Source: Paraspadella gotoi
Lineage: Eukaryota > Animalia > Chaetognatha
Reading direction: 5' to 3'
Assembly (NCBI GenBank): GCA_051294375.1
Contig: JBJCIZ010000138.1
Coordinates: 1 to 6,946 of the forward strand
Length of the DNA stretch: 6,946 nt
Shown: positions 1 to 6,946 of the stretch, piece by piece
How the letters are laid out: the number at the start of each line of letters is the position of its first letter
How positions within the stretch are numbered: the stretch's first letter is position 1
Program-made: the position numbers and the translations under genes
Notes under the pieces: model-generated
Seen by the model: the letters and a program-made list of their open reading frames with translations, nothing else
What the model was told of the DNA's origin: nothing
Databases searched by the model: none

Positions 1-1
1 C

Positions 2-328
2 GATTTCATTTAAAGTTTTTTGAGCGAACAGATCTCCTCGTTGAATCTTAAACATCGCCCAAAGGACCAGGTTTGTATTTTCGTCGTCGATAAATTGAAT
101 TCTTTTTCTTTCGGCTTCGACGTCCGCCGCAGGGTTTTCTGCCAGTTTCGTCTCGACAGCGGTTTCAATTCTTGCCATCTCCGAGTCGTTGCTTCTGGCT
201 TGTTCGAGGGACTCTTCCGCAGAACTCGGCATCCTTTGATTAACCTCTTGTTTCATTCGAGTTTTTATAACGTAGGTAATTTGGCTATGGCCACGAATCC
301 AATGATCAAAGTCTTGTTCTCTTGACAT
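2..328 (-). CDS. Family A small helical protein (A3), 3' end runs off the window; absent from the ORF track
   Basis: ATG at 328, open to the edge: MSREQDFDHWIRGHSQITYVIKTRMKQEVNQRMPSSAEESLEQARSNDSEMARIETAVETKLAENPAADVEAERKRIQFIDDENTNLVLWAMFKIQRGDLFAQKTLNEI. Aligns with 3195..2761 (RMPSSAEESLE/RLPGCVEECIE; NPAADV/NPTANV; RGDLF/RGCIF). Confidence 0.8.
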   Translation of the reverse strand, partial: MSREQDFDHWIRGHSQITYVIKTRMKQEVNQRMPSSAEESLEQARSNDSEMARIETAVETKLAENPAADVEAERKRIQFIDDENTNLVLWAMFKIQRGDLFAQKTLNEI

Positions 329-438
329 ACTTTGATAAGCTTAATAAATGAATAAACAGATAAATAAACATTTCAATTAATAACGAATGGAATACACCAA
401 ATATAGGCAATTGATGATGATGACCGTTTACAGGTTTG

Positions 439-771
439 TTAAAGAGAATTCTCTCTTTCAAGAGTCTCCATCNNNNNNNNNNGCGCTTCATAAAACCGGA
501 GATAAATGCTAGCGTNNNNNNNNNNGATCTTCAGAGCCTCCCCGATCAGCCGTACGATGTCGGTTGACTTTTTCACTTCCTTTCTGATTTCAGCAATGGT
601 TCGAGGAACTTGTCTTCTGATCCCTTCTTGCTCTAGGTTCCATAGGGCATTTTCCCTGATAGTCAGATCGATGATGGATTTTGTCTTCTCTTGACCCCAT
701 GGCTTTTCGTTGAGCTGCATCCAGTCTCTGTTTAATTGATCTCGAATTTTGTTAAAAGCAATGAAATCCAT
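439..771 (-). CDS. Family B small helical protein (B3), 110 aa, spans two N runs
   Basis: TATTTCAG acceptor ending at 777, 5 nt before the ATG. WxxL-x12-IID-x3-RE has identical spacing to WxxL-x12-ILD-x3-RE in 3632..3291. Confidence 0.8.
   Translation of the reverse strand: MDFIAFNKIRDQLNRDWMQLNEKPWGQEKTKSIIDLTIRENALWNLEQEGIRRQVPRTIAEIRKEVKKSTDIVRLIGEALKIXXXXASIYLRFYEAXXXXMETLERENSL
473..525. other. Two 10-N gaps (473-482, 516-525)
   Basis: Seen directly; they indicate low-quality or masked sequence. Confidence 0.95.
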
Positions 772-852
772 TTTACCTGAAATAAGTTGATTATCAAGAT
801 ATCAAAAAATGTCATTTGCTTTGACTTGACCAAAAAATAAAGAACAGGTAAG

Positions 853-1119
853 TTAGCAAGGTAAATTCATTACAGTTTTGGTTCCGAGTGAAAATATATC
901 TCTTTTGCTCTTCCAGGATTTTCGCCCATCTGGTAAGTTGTGCAATTGTCTTGAATTCTCGTTCATCAGCACCATGGATCCCATACTCTTGAATTCTTCG
1001 GACCAAGTTGTCTTCTCTCTTCTGGATTTCATCCAGTGCGTCTTCAAGATTGGTAGGTAGCCAGAATATCGCGTTTTCTCTGGCATATTTTTTGAAGTTT
1101 CTTCTCTCACTTCAGACAT
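853..1119 (-). pseudogene. Family A copy (A5), frameshifted (pseudogene or sequence error); 3' end uncertain (about 870 to 812)
   Basis: ATTTCAG acceptor at 1141, ATG at 1119. After one frameshift near 1100 it reads NFKKYARENAIFWLPTNLEDALDEIQ...QLTRWAKILEEQKRYIFTR (frame of ORF 812..1006), matching both family A motifs. Confidence 0.65.
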
Positions 1120-1173
1120 TTTTTAATAATTAGTGAGAAGCTGAAATTTAGAAAAAGGTAAGTATAAAAAATT

Positions 1174-1470
1174 TCAACAATACTCAGGAATTCTGTAAAT
1201 TCTGGTGGCGAATATTTTTCCATCTTTTTCCAAAATGTCCGGCCATTTCCTCTACACTTAATGCGATATTGAATATTCTGCTCTGCTTCTGGCATTCGAT
1301 ACTTCGTTTTGTCCTTTCTCCTTTCGTCCCCTTTTCAATTTCTTGTTCTTCTTGAGCCAATTCCTTTTCAAAGCCTCTCAAGTCTTTTAAAGCTCTTTCC
1401 AACGAATCCGGGACCAAATGATCGGCAAAAGTCTCATTTTCTCGAACGTAAAACTCAGAATTTATGCCAT
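1174..1470 (-). pseudogene. Family A copy (A4), multiple frameshifts
   Basis: TTACAG|A|ATG at 1470, followed by GCA TAA in that frame. Another frame gives FYVRENETFADHLVPDSLERALKDLRGFEKELAQ (compare APDCVEKCFDLIKNYSLELKQ). A downstream shifted segment gives RKWPDILEKDGKIFA (compare EKWKKIRLAEGRIFN). Confidence 0.65.
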
Positions 1471-1555
1471 TCTGTAACTAAAGGTAAGTGAATTGATAAT
1501 TGATATAAATCACTAATCCGGAATGTCTAATAAAGTAAGTTTGTTTATATTTTCA

Positions 1556-1895
1556 TTAAACGTTCTTTTGCCTGATCCTGGAGTTCCTTTGCCCGGCTTT
1601 CATTTCATCATAAATTTCACCAAGATCTGGTCTTTTGCGTTTCGCATTCCTTGCCAATTTTTGGCGATCTTCCAATTCTTGAATGTCCTTGTACAGTTCG
1701 GACGCCTCGATGGCTTTATTGCCTCTCATCCTTTCCTCTCTTTTCCTCCTTTTTCTTCCGGATTCGAATTTCATATTCTCCGAAAGACTATGCTCTCAAC
1801 CGCAGAATTTCTTTCAAACGATCTTTGATATTCCTCGCTCTCCCAATCGCGAGCAATCTCATCTTGAATCTCGGAATGGATTTCATTTGAGCCAT
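1556..1895 (-). pseudogene. Family B copy (B4), about 2 frameshifts
   Basis: TATTCAG acceptor at 1913, ATG at 1895. A shifted frame gives IQDEIARDW (compare IRDQLNRDW in B3). ORF 1556..1774 KDIQELEDRQKLARNAKRKRPDLGEIYDE aligns ungapped to B2 KDVRNALGWKKTAVMLKFHQKKKTETYNE. Confidence 0.65.
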
Positions 1896-1944
1896 TGTAG
1901 GCAAGTATAGAGCTGAATAAATTTATTTAAAAATAAGACAATTA

Positions 1945-2298
1945 TTAGTGAAAGAAGGCGAACCGAATAACTTTGAGGTAAGTTTGAGTTATTATTCTCA
2001 TGGCAATTCTTCCATTATCGTCTCGACACTCTTCTTTATTGAAGATGCGCCCTTCAGCAAGTCGAATCTTCTTCCATTTCTCGATGAAGCATATTTCCTC
2101 TTCCAAGAATTTGATTCGTTCGTCTTGACCTTCAGCGACTTCCTGCAATTGCTTCAGTTCCAAGGAATAGTTTTTGATGAGGTCGAAACACTTTTCAACA
2201 CAATCGGGAGCTTCATTGTTCAACTTCTCGTTCTTTTTAACTACGAATGCTCGAAAGTCCTTATATCGATAGGCAAGGTACCCACTGCAGCCTTGCAT
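1945..2298 (-). CDS. Family A protein (A2); C-terminal half of ORF 1945..2685, probably its own cistron starting MQGCSGY
   Basis: ACTTACCT at 2346-2339, a T-rich tract, CCTTCAG (2314) and TATTCAG (2304) acceptors, ATG at 2298. PDCVEKC...IKFLEEE...EKWKKI...GRIFN matches A1 PGCVEEC...IKEFEEE...ERWKQI...GCIFN. Confidence 0.8.
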   Translation of the reverse strand: MQGCSGYLAYRYKDFRAFVVKKNEKLNNEAPDCVEKCFDLIKNYSLELKQLQEVAEGQDERIKFLEEEICFIEKWKKIRLAEGRIFNKEECRDDNGRIAMRIITQTYLKVIRFAFFH

Positions 2299-2351
2299 TG
2301 TTTCTGAATATTCCTGAAGGCAAAACATAAAGTAAACAAGGTAAGTTCGAT

Positions 2352-2698
2352 TTAAGACAGGATTTGAATTTCTTCCTGTTTTCTTCTTTATATATTCATC
2401 AATCATATTGTAAATCTCATTATAAGTTTCAGTCTTTTTCTTCTGGTGAAATTTGAGCATCACAGCCGTCTTCTTCCATCCTAACGCGTTTCGGACGTCC
2501 TTTTCGGCGGCTTCCTTCAGCTTCATTTTGATGTCTTCAGGTTTGTACTTGTGCCATTCTGGATGCCGTTCGACTTTCGCCTCTTGCTCCTTCACATTGA
2601 GGTTCCTTCCGAAATGTTTGTCGTCCATTCTTTCCCTCATTCTCGTAGAGGTGTTCCCATTCTTGAAGGTATCGTGCACCACCAACTGGATCGGACAT
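2352..2698 (-). pseudogene. Family B copy (B2), two apparent +1 nt frameshifts
   Basis: Begins MSDPVGGARYLQEWEHL at ATG 2698 (compare B1 MSDKVVWLWDEWRSL). Shifts into EQEAKVERHPEW...AEKDVRNALGWKKTA (compare EAEANIAYRPEW...AEKAIRLARNWMKTA). A further shift near 2380 gives KQEEIQILS* (TAA 2354-2352; compare KQEMIL). Confidence 0.7.
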
Positions 2699-2760
2699 CT
2701 TTCGAACAGGTAAGTAAGTATTAACTGTGAAGGTAAGTGTTTTAATTAAACGATCGCATC

Positions 2761-3195
2761 TCAAAATGGTAAGTTAATAAATCTTTGATCAATTAAAGAG
2801 TTCCATTGCATTTTATATAATGGAAAGTCCCACAATCTCAACTGCTTCCATTGCAGGGATTTTTTCTTTAAGGATTCAAGACTTTCGCGGTTGAAGATGC
2901 AACCTCGACTCAGATAAATTTGTTTCCATCGCTCGAGAGTCGGAAACTCCTCTTCGAATTCTTTGATCTTTTCAGTGAATTCTTTCACATTTGCCGTTGG
3001 ATTCTTTGCTTTTCTCTTCGCGATGGTCTCACGCAGCTTCTCGATCTTTGTAGTATAACTTTGCGTCAATTCGATGCATTCTTCGACGCATCCTGGGAGA
3101 CGCCTTTCCAGCTCATCCGTCTTCCGGCGTTTGAAGGCACAGAGCTCCAAATGCTCTCTGGAATAGATCCAAGATAATGGAAGTCCGTTCTGCAT
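2761..3195 (-). CDS. Family A protein (A1), 144 aa, likely start MQNGLP
   Basis: Intact ORF; TTTATTTACAG acceptor at 3210 precedes ATG 3195. The upstream 33 codons of ORF 2761..3294 are AT-rich spacer. Clear paralog of A2 and A3. Confidence 0.85.
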   Translation of the reverse strand: MQNGLPLSWIYSREHLELCAFKRRKTDELERRLPGCVEECIELTQSYTTKIEKLRETIAKRKAKNPTANVKEFTEKIKEFEEEFPTLERWKQIYLSRGCIFNRESLESLKKKSLQWKQLRLWDFPLYKMQWNSLIDQRFINLPF

Positions 3196-3290
3196 TGTAT
3201 CCAAGAGAACTGTAAATAAATAAATTAATATTCGAACAATCCAAATCGATATTTTTGACATTGACTTCACATTAGTTTGTATGAATTCAT

Positions 3291-3632
3291 TCATTCATGA
3301 AATGTTTTTAGAATCATCTCTTGCTTTTCGATGCGTTCCTGCATCATTTCAATAATAGTTTCAAAGGTCTTAGCCCTTTTGGGTTTTTCTTTTCTCAGGA
3401 TCTCCGCTGTCTTCATCCAATTCCTGGCAAGACGAATTGCCTTTTCTGCTTCATCTTCAGGACCTTTGTTCTCTCCTTGGAGGATCTTTTTCACCCACTC
3501 CGGTCTGTAGGCTATATTTGCTTCTGCTTCTCGGAGAATCACGTCCAGGATCTTCCTGTTCCTGTTTTCGGTCTCTTTCTGCAGCTTAAGACTTCTCCAT
3601 TCGTCCCATAGCCAAACGACTTTGTCAGACAT
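3291..3632 (-). CDS. Family B protein (B1), 113 aa
   Basis: Intact K/E-rich ORF preceded by ATACTTACCTTCAG...TATTTAGCAAATG; paralogous to B2, B3 and B4. Confidence 0.85.
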   Translation of the reverse strand: MSDKVVWLWDEWRSLKLQKETENRNRKILDVILREAEANIAYRPEWVKKILQGENKGPEDEAEKAIRLARNWMKTAEILRKEKPKRAKTFETIIEMMQERIEKQEMILKTFHE

Positions 3633-3719
3633 TTGCTAAATAAATCCTGAAGGTAAGTATATTGAAAATAATAACTTTGAATTGCAATAAAATTGTAGTG
3701 ATAAATGAACAATCACTGA

Positions 3720-3915
3720 TCAGTTTTTTTCCGTTTTTCGTGTAGAGTTTTTTGTCTCTTGATCTGGGATGGGTGCCTGGATCATCATCTTTTTACTTTC
3801 TAGTAAGATCAAGGATCGCTTTGCGCTTGCCTTTTCAGGATCGGAATATGAAACTCCATGGGTTTCGCCATAACAGATGCCATTTGCCAAACATATAGCC
3901 GCTAAATGAAGTCAT
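3720..3915 (-). pseudogene. Probable short cistron, frame-disrupted, family unassigned
   Basis: TTATTCAG|GAAAATG at 3915 and coding-like composition between two AT-rich spacers. The ATG frame stops after 26 aa; another frame stays open to TGA at 3722-3720 (...DPEKASAKRSLILLESKKMMIQAPIPDQETKNSTRKTEKN). Confidence 0.4.
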
Positions 3916-4005
3916 TTTCCTGAATAATCAAGAATAATTAATAATAACAGGATTCAATTTCAATGGTTTGACAGCCAATTGAACAAATATTTGATGAGAT
4001 AATGT

Positions 4006-4329
4006 TTAAAATGTTTTCCTTTTGCGATATAACGTCTGTTTTGTTACTGGTTTTGAGGCGCGGTGAACAAAGTCTCGAATTACTGCGTAAATGTCTTCGA
4101 GAGCCTCTCGTTGCATGTCAGCGTATTTTTCCATTGACGCTGTAGGAATACTGCCCATGGGAAGATTCTGTATCGTCCTCCTGTCCACGGTTTCGTTCAG
4201 CTTCTTTTCCGTCCGTTCTTTCCAGCGCCCGTACTCCATCACAAATTCTTCTTTGAAGGGATCTGGGATGTGTTCGAGTAGAATTCTCATGTGGAGTTCT
4301 CCCTCGATTTCAATATAGTTTCCGGACAT
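4006..4329 (-). CDS. Family C protein (C2), 107 aa, start MSGNYIEI
   Basis: Intact ORF; ACTTACCTTTTTTAG upstream of ATG 4329; paralog at 4646..4407; basic C-terminus RKRK. Confidence 0.85.
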   Translation of the reverse strand: MSGNYIEIEGELHMRILLEHIPDPFKEEFVMEYGRWKERTEKKLNETVDRRTIQNLPMGSIPTASMEKYADMQREALEDIYAVIRDFVHRASKPVTKQTLYRKRKTF

Positions 4330-4406
4330 TTTGAATGTGAATAACAAACTAAAAAAGGTAAGTAAATCAAACAATTCGTACACAAAGTTTTATGAATAAT
4401 TTCGTT

Positions 4407-4646
4407 TTACTTCTCGGCTCTGTCTCGTAAGTCAATGATAATCTTTTTTAACATTTCTCGCCTCTTTTTCATGGCATGTTGCATATATAAGTTCTTTGCT
4501 TATTCTGATAAGTTCAACGATTCGATTTGATCCATTTTGAGCATCGTTTCGTCGTACCAATGATTGTATCTCTCGTGAAACTCCGCTAAGTGTTCCATTG
4601 GAACGAGATCCATCATCCTATTGAACAGGACTCGCCGAGATGACAT
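4407..4646 (-). pseudogene. Family C copy (C1) with one in-frame TAA at 4502-4500; absent from the ORF track
   Basis: MSSRRVLFNRMMDLVPMEHLAEFHERYNHWYDETMLKMDQIESLNLSE*AKNLYMQHAMKKRREMLKKIIIDLRDRAEK*. Shares P-x5-EF-x3-Y-x2-W-x3-T-x2-K and RExLxxI-x4-RD with C2. TTTATAG acceptor near 4665. Confidence 0.75.
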
Positions 4647-4968
4647 GATCCCAAAGTTGATTCTCTATAAAGAAATGTTTATTATTATTCCATTGCCATC
4701 AGGTAAGTATTTGTATTGAAATATTGACTTTATTAATTCTTTTCCTCTGCAGGATCGTTACCAGAATTTCGTCGAATTTTCTTAATGTTGAGCAAGTGTC
4801 CGGAAATCCAATAGATGCTTAAAGTTCTTGTATCGCCGGAAGCTTAAAGGTAGGTTTGCAAGTTTATTGAAAACAATTCAAAACAACTTAAAACAATGCA
4901 AGAGATCAAAACGCCAGTCTCCCGCCTAAATTTTGTGCCATAATGCGAATCTTATGAGAAATAAATTC

Positions 4969-5166
4969 TCATGGAGTTTTGCAGTAAGTGTCTGCTGACA
5001 TGATATGAGACGGAATGATGCGTCCGATCTCCGTCTCTGAAAGAATCGTAGCTAAACGACGTCGGTAAAGGTTTACTTCAAAAGAGATTTCGATTGAAGA
5101 TTCCGGCGGACGCGTGATTGGCGGCGTCGGCGGCGCCTGATAATTTGAATCGGATTTCTTTTCCAT
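4969..5166 (-). CDS. Hypothetical Pro-containing ORF, possibly the 3' part of a longer disrupted gene
   Basis: 65-aa ORF in GC-richer sequence; no clear acceptor before the ATG; faint resemblance of RPPESSIEISF to RPSSPGTVVEISW in the upstream gene. Confidence 0.3.
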   Translation of the reverse strand: MEKKSDSNYQAPPTPPITRPPESSIEISFEVNLYRRRLATILSETEIGRIIPSHIMSADTYCKTP

Positions 5167-5219
5167 TCCTTTGCGACTTCACCGAACTTGGTACTAGCGA
5201 TAATTCTGTCCGAGCTTGA

Positions 5220-5264
5220 TACAAGTGGTGACTCTGTCCAAATCCACTACAAGTGGCAACTCTG
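5220..5264. repeat. Short direct repeat, 17 nt x2, period 28
   Basis: tacaagtggtgactctg (5220-5236) and tacaagtggcaactctg (5248-5264), 15/17 identical. Confidence 0.8.
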
Positions 5265-5321
5265 GCTGAATCCGTTGGTACGACGGTCTCTTCGTACTTG
5301 GCTTTGTGGATTCCGTGGACA

Positions 5322-5478
5322 CCTTATTTTACGAAGAGCGACGGTTCCTGATCTGTAACGATAAAGCTTCTCAACATCTCCAATGGCATCAAAGTTTGAG
5401 GATAGTCTTAATAATTAGTTGCTTGCGAGAAGCTTTACCTCCGGTCGATTTAGATGCGGTTTGTTAGGTGGAAGCCAT
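5322..5478 (-). pseudogene. H3: Degenerate histone H3 N-terminal fragment (about residues 1-52)
   Basis: MAST*QTASKSTGGKASRKQLIIKTILKL, frameshift, DAIGDVEKLYRYRSGTVALRKIR, versus canonical [53 protein letters not shown]. No histone fold follows. Confidence 0.9.
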
Positions 5479-5627
5479 GGCGAATAGTGGGTGAAGTCTG
5501 CAGTCTGTCTAATATATCTGTCAATCAGGTTAAGACAACATTAGCAATGTTTGACTTCATTATAAAAGAAAATACGGTAACAAAGTTCGGGACACACGAC
5601 TTTTTTTAAAAAAAAAAGGAGGAACGC

Positions 5628-6662
5628 TCAATTTGGCTGTTGGGGAAGCCATCCCAATCGCTCCTTCACTGGGCGACGGCGCCTGTTCTCCTCGGCGTTA
5701 GGACGTTGGCTTGATAAACTCTCGCGTAGATCACGGACCGCCTCGCCCACGCTCTTCGCGATGTTGAAATCGTGCGGCATCTCGCGCCTTGTCACCGTCA
5801 CGCGTGGATGCGTTTCAAATACGACTTCCTGTTTAATAGCATTTTTTATATAATAAATTTGTTTGTCAGCATCCTTCCTATAATAAATTCGGTTCTTACG
5901 CAATCGGAGCTGTCGCTATCAACGGCTAACGGTGGGTAGCCGAAATAGTCACGGACCGGCGTTCCCACTTCAGTCGAAGGCGAGGAAGGTGGGGACGGTG
6001 AAGGGGCGCGGATCCTTTGCGCCATGAACGGACGACGAACCGAGGCGTTTTGTTCGTCGTCCGGTTGAGAAACCGGGGTTTCCGTCGCCGGAGCGGACGG
6101 CGGCATAATGCGGATCCTGTGTGCCATGAACGGGCGACGAACCGGGAAATCCTGCTCGTCGTTAGGTCGAGAGACCGGGGTTTCCGTTTCCGGCGCAGAC
6201 GGCGGCATCATGCGGATCGGACGACGAACCGAGGCGTCCTGCTCGCCGCTAGGTCGAGAGACAGGGACTTCCGTTCCTGGTGGCGGTGGTTCCACATCGA
6301 CCCATGAAATTTCAACGACTGTTCCTGGCGACGATGGTCGTGCGTTGCTCCGAACGGTTGGATCGTCTGTCCCCGGCGGCGCTGGCTCGTTCTTTGAGAG
6401 AGGTGCGACTCTCGCCGTTGGTTTGGAACAAGTGGCCGCGGCAATCTCTCTTGCCCGCTTTGACGCGTCGTCCTGAAGTGGACAATTAAACTTAACGAGA
6501 TCGTGAAAGCAAATATATTTAAGAGGCAAAAACTCTCTCTTTCTCGCTTGATAGAATTATCGTTACATGATTGGTTGGAATCAACCGATCAAAGATATAC
6601 TAATTTGATCAACCGGCTAGCTCGATAATGATTATTTCCTTTATTTTATTTACCGATGACAT
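5628..6662 (-). CDS. Pro/Arg/Ser-rich repeat protein; coding exons 6662-6654 and 6472-5628, with an apparent frameshift near 5900
   Basis: ATG TCA TCG|GTAAAT donor (6653) and CACTTCAG|GAC acceptor (6473) join in frame as MSS-DDASKRARE. ORFs 5846..6529 and 5628..5903 overlap and look like one shifted CDS. High GC. Confidence 0.65.
6008..6290 (-). repeat. Coding tandem repeat, about 3 units (102, 102 and about 87 nt)
   Basis: GCGGATC anchors at 6008, 6110 and 6212; peptide unit PPSAPxTETPVSRPxDEQDxxVRRP(FMAxR)IR. Confidence 0.9.
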
Positions 6663-6864
6663 CTTGAGAAGATGGTTGACCGCAAAAAGGAAGTTGGACT
6701 GCGACGAGAGTCAAGGAAACTTACTGAACTGGTGCCTGCGGAAAATTTCAGTAACGCAAAGTTCAATGAACGAGCATGAGAAAACGATTAAATACAGAAT
6801 TAGCATTGGTAACGCTTAAATAAACGTGAAAGACAATTGGTCTGGTAACTTTCAAATTTCGAGT

Positions 6865-6945
6865 TCAGATTTCCTCAGAGTCTTCCATTTCATGGATTTT
6901 CGTAAGAAGAGCACGATTTCTCCTGTCTCTCTTAATTTTACGAAG
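6865..6945 (-). CDS. 3' end of a possible upstream ORF (LRKIKRDRRNRALLTKIHEMEDSEEI*), weakly H3-like
   Basis: Open from the window edge to TGA at 6867-6865; LRxIxR-x6-LL has the spacing of H3 LREIRRYQKSTELL. Confidence 0.3.
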   Translation of the reverse strand, partial: LRKIKRDRRNRALLTKIHEMEDSEEI

Positions 6946-6946
6946 T

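Follow-up and report, generated by a model that had tools for sequence, protein, structure and literature searches.

A motif complementary to the splice donor recurs in the spacers of an array of small orphan genes in the chaetognath Paraspadella gotoi

We examined 6,946 nt of DNA from the chaetognath Paraspadella gotoi (contig JBJCIZ010000138.1 of assembly GCA_051294375.1, positions 1 to 6,946 of the forward strand; hereafter the window), in which about 12 small co-oriented open reading frames (ORFs), all on the minus strand, lie within positions 1-4760. We named these g1 to g12 from right to left. The spacers of the array carry a short recurrent motif, ACTTACC on the coding strand, that is complementary to the consensus splice donor. 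This appears to be a signal like the Ur element of nematode operons in an extreme form, within an unusually long array of orphan genes. An original prediction, made from the sequence alone, had proposed that the array is a very long eukaryotic operon; the motif strengthens that reading, although it does not prove it. Our tentative proposal, which we hold at slightly under an even chance, is that the array is polycistronic and resolved by leader splicing, with the motif serving as a dock for the donor site of the leader.

GGTAAGT occurs 12 times in the window, always on the plus strand, where 0.33 copies are expected and the maximum in 200 shuffles was 3. When one mismatch was allowed, AGGTAAGT gave 18 matches, again all on the plus strand (expected 2.96; maximum 10 in shuffles). 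The coding strand reads ACTTACC, with T next in 10 of the 12 copies and T or G next in 11, and the sequences flanking ACTTACC(T) carry no information across the 12 copies. All but one of the exact copies sit within spacers or at their borders, and the next ATG follows after 10-81 nt. At least one copy precedes 9 of the 12 genes, with three before g6A, and an acceptor-like AG stands between motif and ATG in all nine. The 8-mer ACTTACCT is the reverse complement of AG/GTAAGT, and ACUUACCU is the reverse complement of the consensus donor in RNA, AG/GUAAGU. We take the motif to have the sequence of the 5' end of U1 small nuclear RNA (snRNA). The motif was absent from the observations of the original prediction.

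Paralogous genes of the array have diverged to 23-34% identity while the 8-mer between them has stayed exact, which argues that the motif is kept by selection and is not a product of recent duplication. On this comparison of sequences, ACTTACC(T) is best regarded as being under selection. Four of the eight one-mismatch variants (at 859, 1533, 1899, and 2712) amount to C-to-U or A-to-G on the coding strand, as does a polymorphism at 1977, the plus-strand first G of one motif copy, which is A in three of four samples and gives either ACTTACC or ACTTACT on the coding strand. Such changes would preserve pairing through G-U wobble, a weak hint that we estimate would arise by chance with a probability of ~0.07. 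As a separate observation, the motif-less spacers before g5B (3270-3210) and g12 (431-340) contain donor-like sequences (GTGAAGT or GTAAAC) with an acceptor 61 or 92 nt later, and these two spacers may be cis-spliced introns in untranslated regions (UTRs) between A-like and B-type genes, two types described below.

The small-gene array is well supported by the ORF content of the minus strand. Between 526 and 4760 it holds 8 ATG-initiated ORFs of at least 60 amino acids, totaling 2796 nt; shuffling (n = 500) gave on average 0.78 ORFs and 170 nt, and at most 6 ORFs. The predicted layout of 12 co-oriented cistrons is borne out, with all of them on the minus strand. The distances from stop to next ATG are 51-170 nt in the window sequence and are approximate, because the assembly contains indels. 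GC content is 35-41% up to ~4800 and rises to as much as 61% around 5750-6500. The signals that had been predicted around the genes are also present. Each of the 12 starts has an AG in the 60 nt preceding it, and nine also satisfy a stricter acceptor rule, which asks for a YAG no more than 45 nt away that follows 8 positions with 6 or more pyrimidines. Such strict pyrimidine-YAG sites number 22 in the array, and 10 of them fall inside the 11% of the array that lies immediately upstream of starts. Poly(A)-like hexamers occur as predicted: AATAAA is found at 1927-1922 and again at 4734-4729, and AATGAA at three stops, near 1557, 871, and 3291. No run resembling a Shine-Dalgarno sequence was found upstream of any of the 12 starts, also as predicted.

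An A occupies position -3 in 11 of the 12 array starts and a neighboring gene contains a spliceosomal intron, which together mark the locus, on sequence grounds, as eukaryotic. A bacterial integron cassette array, which would have attC sites and a bacterial genomic setting, was ruled out by the A at -3, the lack of Shine-Dalgarno sequences, and the adjacent intron; no imperfect inverted repeats were found between the ORFs. We also note that ATGTC, encoding Met-Ser, opens 6 of the 12 ORFs (starts at 4646, 4329, 3632, 2698, 1119, and 328).

Short-read contigs carrying the array were recovered from six samples of a single organism in three studies, and two comparisons with the window were made, of four runs each. 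The contigs differ from the window at 60 places by indels of one or two bases in 526-6946 and, in the second comparison, at 29 places in 1100-2400. Twelve of the differences are listed for each comparison, and the runs agree with each other against the window. Substitutions are fewer, as in one contig of 2719 nt with 16 other letters and 34 gap letters, and the X2 contig across the GC-rich flank (5608-6550) has zero differences from the window. Because indels outnumber substitutions and are confined to the array, we attribute them to leftover long-read assembly errors: the array in the window is unpolished long-read sequence with residual errors. Dense indels in the array beside none in the flank look like polishing that failed locally, which repetition of the array might explain. 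One run, X9, was considered as a possible RNA sample, but its low-depth contigs run across spacers and have the same breakpoints as the DNA contigs, and it was treated as DNA.

These errors affect the ORF sizes (65-145 codons) and frames of the original prediction, which rest on the faulty window sequence and need correction. In the window, g3, g6A, g8, and g9 are each split over two or three frames. We rejoined the ORFs by frame arithmetic on the listed differences. In g6A, a difference at 2628 (-1) found in all four runs joins the frames beginning at 2698 and 2640. In g3, a difference at 3881 (+2) joins ATG 3915 to the ORF at 3890-3720; three runs show it, and the fourth, X9, lacks coverage at that point. 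For g8, two single-base differences shared by all four runs, at 1779 (-1) and 1741 (-1), bring its last three pieces together, the join to ATG 1895 lying outside the listed differences. In g9, differences at 1463 (+1), 1437 (-1), and 1426 (+1), again in all four runs, bring ATG 1470 into frame with the long ORF. Thus, the array genes are intact in the sequenced samples, and codon counts taken from the window are approximate. A further difference, at 2871 (+1) in all four runs, shifts the stop of g5B to ~2814, and the three motif copies before g6A therefore become intergenic. In g11, two runs of exactly ten N (473-482 and 516-525) represent gaps or masked letters and hide part of the ORF.

Two or more paralog families alternate along the array. 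Among A-type proteins, g4A and g6A share 33% identity over 72 amino acids (E 8e-11); among B-type proteins, g5B shares 29% identity with g7B over 115 amino acids (E 3e-14) and 25% with g12 over 102 amino acids (E 7e-12), all in a database of 63 segments. At least five array genes belong to these two families. The term "rapidly expanding" in the original prediction is compatible with paralog families at this level of identity. Outside the array, searches with 14 window ORFs against Pfam (E up to 1), and searches of PHROGs and NCBIfam, gave no match above a curated cut-off, and an index of 5.8 billion proteins yielded no relative of g4A, of the flank exon, or of the B-family alignment. A full HMMER search with g5B returned two coiled-coil look-alikes only, and a protein atlas gave no usable match for the array proteins. 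Three scans of viral contigs gave either nothing or two matches of 18-20 residues that were deemed spurious, and exact-word scans of metagenome contigs gave no match. Searched against the PDB, the B-type profile matched GCN4-type coiled coils only, and with no E value below 0.03. AlphaFold predicts an all-helical g4A (pLDDT 74), for which a fold search returned no match at E 0.001 or better. Judging from these models and profiles, the array proteins appear to be short, helical, partly coiled-coil orphans.

Table 1. Features of the array and its flank. Coordinates are window positions; the right-hand coordinate of each array gene (g1 to g12) is that of its start codon, and AG denotes acceptor-like dinucleotides.
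Feature	Coordinates	Strand	Remarks
g1	4500..4646	-	48 codons as read; 30 further open codons in the same frame past one stop
g2	4006..4329	-	ORF, 107 codons
g3	3720..3915	-	ATG 3915 and ORF 3890-3720 in different window frames; no motif before; AG 3920
g4A	3291..3632	-	A-type, 113 codons; short-read contigs listed over 3291-3618 without gaps
g5B	2761..3195	-	B-type, 144 codons as read; no motif before; AG 3210
g6A	2350..2698	-	A-type; ATG 2698; frames 2698 and 2640 split in window; no definite stop in window sequence
g7B	1945..2298	-	B-type, 117 codons as read; end uncertain (differences at 2234, 2031)
g8	1556..1895	-	Spread over three frames in window
g9	1184..1470	-	Window ATG 1470 out of frame with long ORF
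g10	853..1119	-	88 codons as read; one motif copy inside, 932-938
g11	439..771	-	110 codons as read; weak likeness to A-type
g12	2..328	-	B-type, 109 amino acids read, open at left window edge; no motif before; AG 340
Motif before g1	4702..4708	-	AGs 4665, 4663; AATAAA 4734-4729 lies 20 nt upstream
Motif variant ACCTACCT	4848-4855		Beyond g1 motif
Motif before g2	4357..4363	-	AG 4349
Motif before g4A	3652..3658	-	AGs 3647, 3636
Motif (three copies) before g6A	2768-2774, 2732-2738, 2709-2715	-	AGs 2725, 2699
Motif before g7B	2340..2346	-	AG 2314
Motif before g8	1977..1983	-	Polymorphic copy; AG 1913
Motif variant ACTTGCCT	1899-1906		
Motif variant ACTTACTT	1533-1540		Near g9 motif
Motif before g9	1483..1489	-	AGs 1478, 1472
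Motif before g10	1157..1163	-	37 nt to ATG; AG 1141
Motif before g11	847..853	-	First A is last letter of g10 stop as read; AG 777
Proline-rich repeat protein gene	5628..6529	-	GC-rich neighbor, 71-nt intron

The operon-like reading is strengthened because a motif resembling the U1 5' end precedes 9 of the 12 genes and an acceptor-like AG precedes all 12. Of the operon as originally predicted, these sequence-level parts are now better supported, while the polycistronic RNA and the spliced leader (SL) remain predicted. In the mechanism that we propose, the whole array would be transcribed as one precursor RNA, and each cistron would gain a short leader by splicing at its AG. An SL RNA could supply the leader in trans, or a shared first exon could supply it in cis. 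The part given to the motif is modeled on the Ur element of nematode SL2 operons: it would dock the leader RNA by pairing with its donor. SL exons tabulated in PMC3795323 contain segments of this kind (Rotifera ...ACTTACC... and the cestode-type entry Platyhelminthe 4 ...CTTACCTT...), from which we infer that leader donors commonly pair with such sequence. A bolder version, which we regard as somewhat doubtful, is that every spacer motif mimics the U1 5' end and captures the leader donor for the adjacent acceptor. This would be a perfect 8-bp "role reversal", of which the sole form known so far is the degenerate Ur element of nematode SL2 operons, in an array of 12 or more orphan genes possibly carried by a multi-copy element that exploits host trans-splicing.

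Other origins of the motif copies were tried and rejected. Plus-strand coding with GT-AG introns fails at 3652, where all three frames have stops immediately before the "donor", and the plus-strand ORFs are Ser/Leu/Phe-rich mirror images. Relict SLs from retroposed mRNAs were likewise dismissed, as only the copy at 938 shares more (11 nt) with the rotifer SL exon and none continues into the SL 3' end. Fragments of U1 pseudogenes were excluded because the similarity ends after 11 nt.

The closest known counterpart of the motif is the Ur element of nematodes, which we compare here on the basis of the available portions of the sources cited. TAYYTT is the Ur motif expected upstream of SL2 trans-splice sites (PMC7668243), and the element is described as hybridizing with SL RNA (PMC11155486) and as likely base-pairing with the donor of SL2 RNA (PMC7725455). 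According to these accounts, the SL2 operons of Caenorhabditis elegans and T. spiralis resemble the array in their co-oriented genes, spacers of ~100 nt, an acceptor before each downstream gene, and a short spacer motif complementary to the leader donor. In the array, the 51-170 nt spacers between co-oriented genes fall within the ~50-200 nt of such operons and, at sequence level, acceptors precede the starts; ACTTACC occurs in 9 of the 12 spacers, and 6 of the 12 copies contain TACCTT, an instance of TAYYTT. As far as the available descriptions go, the array differs in having the exact 8-mer, with 8 rather than 6 potential base pairs, and in that its motif adjoins the acceptor instead of lying ~50 nt upstream. 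It also comprises at least 12 intronless orphan genes, whereas most T. spiralis operons, in the same partial accounts, have two genes.

Tunicate operons (Ciona and Oikopleura) are similar to the array in their very short or absent intercistronic regions, and the available text of PMC7986045 describes a single SL for all genes and an AG acceptor near the end of the upstream gene. That text describes no donor-complementary spacer motif and gives seven genes as the upper size of Ciona operons. The array genes have no homologs in any library searched. In the splicing of common leaders by complex viruses, accessory ORFs start just after an acceptor-like AG, as the array ORFs do; neither a leader exon nor a promoter was identified in the window. 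We found no paper that combines the motif with trans-splicing or with intercistronic regions in the literature searched.

Several features weigh against leader splicing guided by the motif. Three of the 12 genes (g3, g5B, and g12) have no motif, and the copy at 932-938 falls within g10 in the window sequence. The motif is 0-45 nt from the nearest AG, as compared with ~50 nt for the Ur element in the available part of PMC7668243. In g4A and g9 the motif abuts the AG, which leaves little room for a branch point. A stem-loop is part of the Ur element of C. elegans. No consistent stem-loop was found upstream of the motif copies. The 51-170 nt spacers would have to accommodate a 3' UTR, a poly(A) signal, the motif, an acceptor, and a 5' UTR, and this spacing is tighter than the median intercistronic distance of 129 nt in C. 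elegans, which is counted from the poly(A) site. Distances in the array, like the ends of its ORFs, are themselves approximate, given that the window sequence of the array is error-ridden.

A rival reading keeps leader splicing but takes the motif as a strong branch point with the start of a pyrimidine tract, recognized by U2 and not a dock for the donor. CUUAC fits the branch-point consensus yUnAy, most copies are followed by T-rich sequence, and, measured by eye, 4-42 nt separate the motif from the first AG after it, a usual range from branch to AG. However, eight exact positions, some of them unable to pair with U2, are more than a branch point needs; neither the cis intron at 5899-5829 nor the three motif-less acceptors have ACTTAC; the variant ACTTGCCT replaces the would-be branch A; and distances of 4-7 nt from branch to AG (copies at 938, 3658, and 1489) would be very short. 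We consider a branch-point role very unlikely. An arrangement with a compact promoter for each gene and no polycistronic RNA, in which ACTTACC(T) would be a core-promoter or initiator element, seems to us quite unlikely, although the motif, short, exact, and 10-81 nt ahead of most starts, has the look of a viral promoter motif. Compact promoters of this kind belong to the dense genomes of large DNA viruses or some protists, and the hint of multiple copies from contig depth (see below) would fit a viral or mobile element. Such a promoter leaves unexplained both the exact complementarity to the consensus splice donor and the acceptor-like AGs between motif and ATG in nine of nine cases, and, also against it, the three viral-contig scans returned two short spurious matches only and PHROGs and Pfam gave no match above a curated cut-off. 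Finally, the absence of relatives in protein libraries and the broken state of several ORFs in the window might suggest nonfunctional ORFs, in the form of a tandem duplication undergoing decay or of ORFs that arose by chance because the DNA is AT-rich. This we hold to be extremely improbable, as the breaks are assembly errors and differences common to four samples rejoin g3, g6A, g8, and g9, while the paralogs retain similarity at the protein level, the ORFs exceed shuffle expectation, and A is found at -3 in 11 of 12 starts.

The original prediction had offered a mobile or virus-like cargo region as the alternative to a host operon. Such a region, made up of the accessory ORFs of a multi-copy element such as a giant retroelement of the Terminon or Burro type, would rely on host trans-splicing or on a common leader of its own; it would be compatible with leader splicing, and we judge it unlikely. 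On copy number, which the original prediction had also raised, contig depth over the array is, in three runs, 2.2-4 times that over the GC-rich flank; the hint is weak, as contig depth is a poor measure of copy number, and GC bias or split flank alleles could also produce such a ratio. Every contig breaks off near 4742 and picks up again at 5124, the stretch in between showing variant loose ends, and long-read errors were retained in the array and not in the flank, as happens in repeats where polishing fails. Depth, breaks, and escaped polishing are together weak hints of several near-identical copies. On the other hand, three samples have contigs of 2.7 kb that match the window colinearly. 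A separate observation is that low-depth contigs from two samples (depths 6.8 and 5.8) replace 126 nt with 139 other letters at 2225-2352, which suggests a second, diverged copy of the g6A-g7B junction.

In the available parts of PMC6431247 and PMC5408684, Terminons (Athena-type, from bdelloid rotifers) are multi-copy and bear multiple co-oriented accessory ORFs, some of them coiled-coil. The array has co-oriented helical ORFs, together with the hint of copies from depth. The 6.9 kb of the window contain no reverse transcriptase, integrase, capsid, Rep, hammerhead ribozyme, or terminal or telomeric repeat, in agreement with the earlier statement that no hallmark mobile gene is present. For Terminons in particular, whose reverse transcriptase is of the Athena type, the Pfam scan of 14 window ORFs at E up to 1 gave no reverse-transcriptase family, a result that is not exclusionary at 6.9 kb because the unit may span more than 40 kb. 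No hammerhead ribozyme was found in the window, where the sole Rfam match at E up to 1 was weak and unrelated. No (ACACCC)n was found in the window at up to two mismatches, nor any such tandem repeat, and the window has no terminal inverted repeats.

How the SL particle finds the right acceptor is an open question, to which the degenerate Ur element of nematodes is the only sequence-specific answer so far. If motif-guided leader splicing is the true reading, nine spacers with an exact complement of the donor would be a natural high-contrast test case for the pairing model. The array would also exceed the operon lengths given in the available portions of the sources, which are seven genes in Ciona, nine in a chaetognath, and nine in a schistosome candidate. 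An array composed only of lineage-specific small proteins would bear on the birth and expression of new genes in animals that use operons or, alternatively, on the way in which a mobile element can express numerous small genes from a single transcript.

To the right of the array, the intron of the proline-rich repeat protein gene (5899-5829) is of the GT..AG type, 71 nt long, and in phase 0 at both ends; it contains an in-frame stop and a 30-nt tandem duplication (5830-5889). In the same gene, a 102-nt unit is repeated 2.1 times at 6008-6280 (three 66-nt cores). A minus-strand ORF of 65 codons with a proline-rich start and no family match lies at 4969-5166, where the promoter of the array would be expected. 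At the right edge, a Lys/Arg-rich minus-strand ORF (6868-6946) runs off the window and ends near 6868; its composition is like that of the array proteins, and small genes may therefore also be present to the right of the flank gene.

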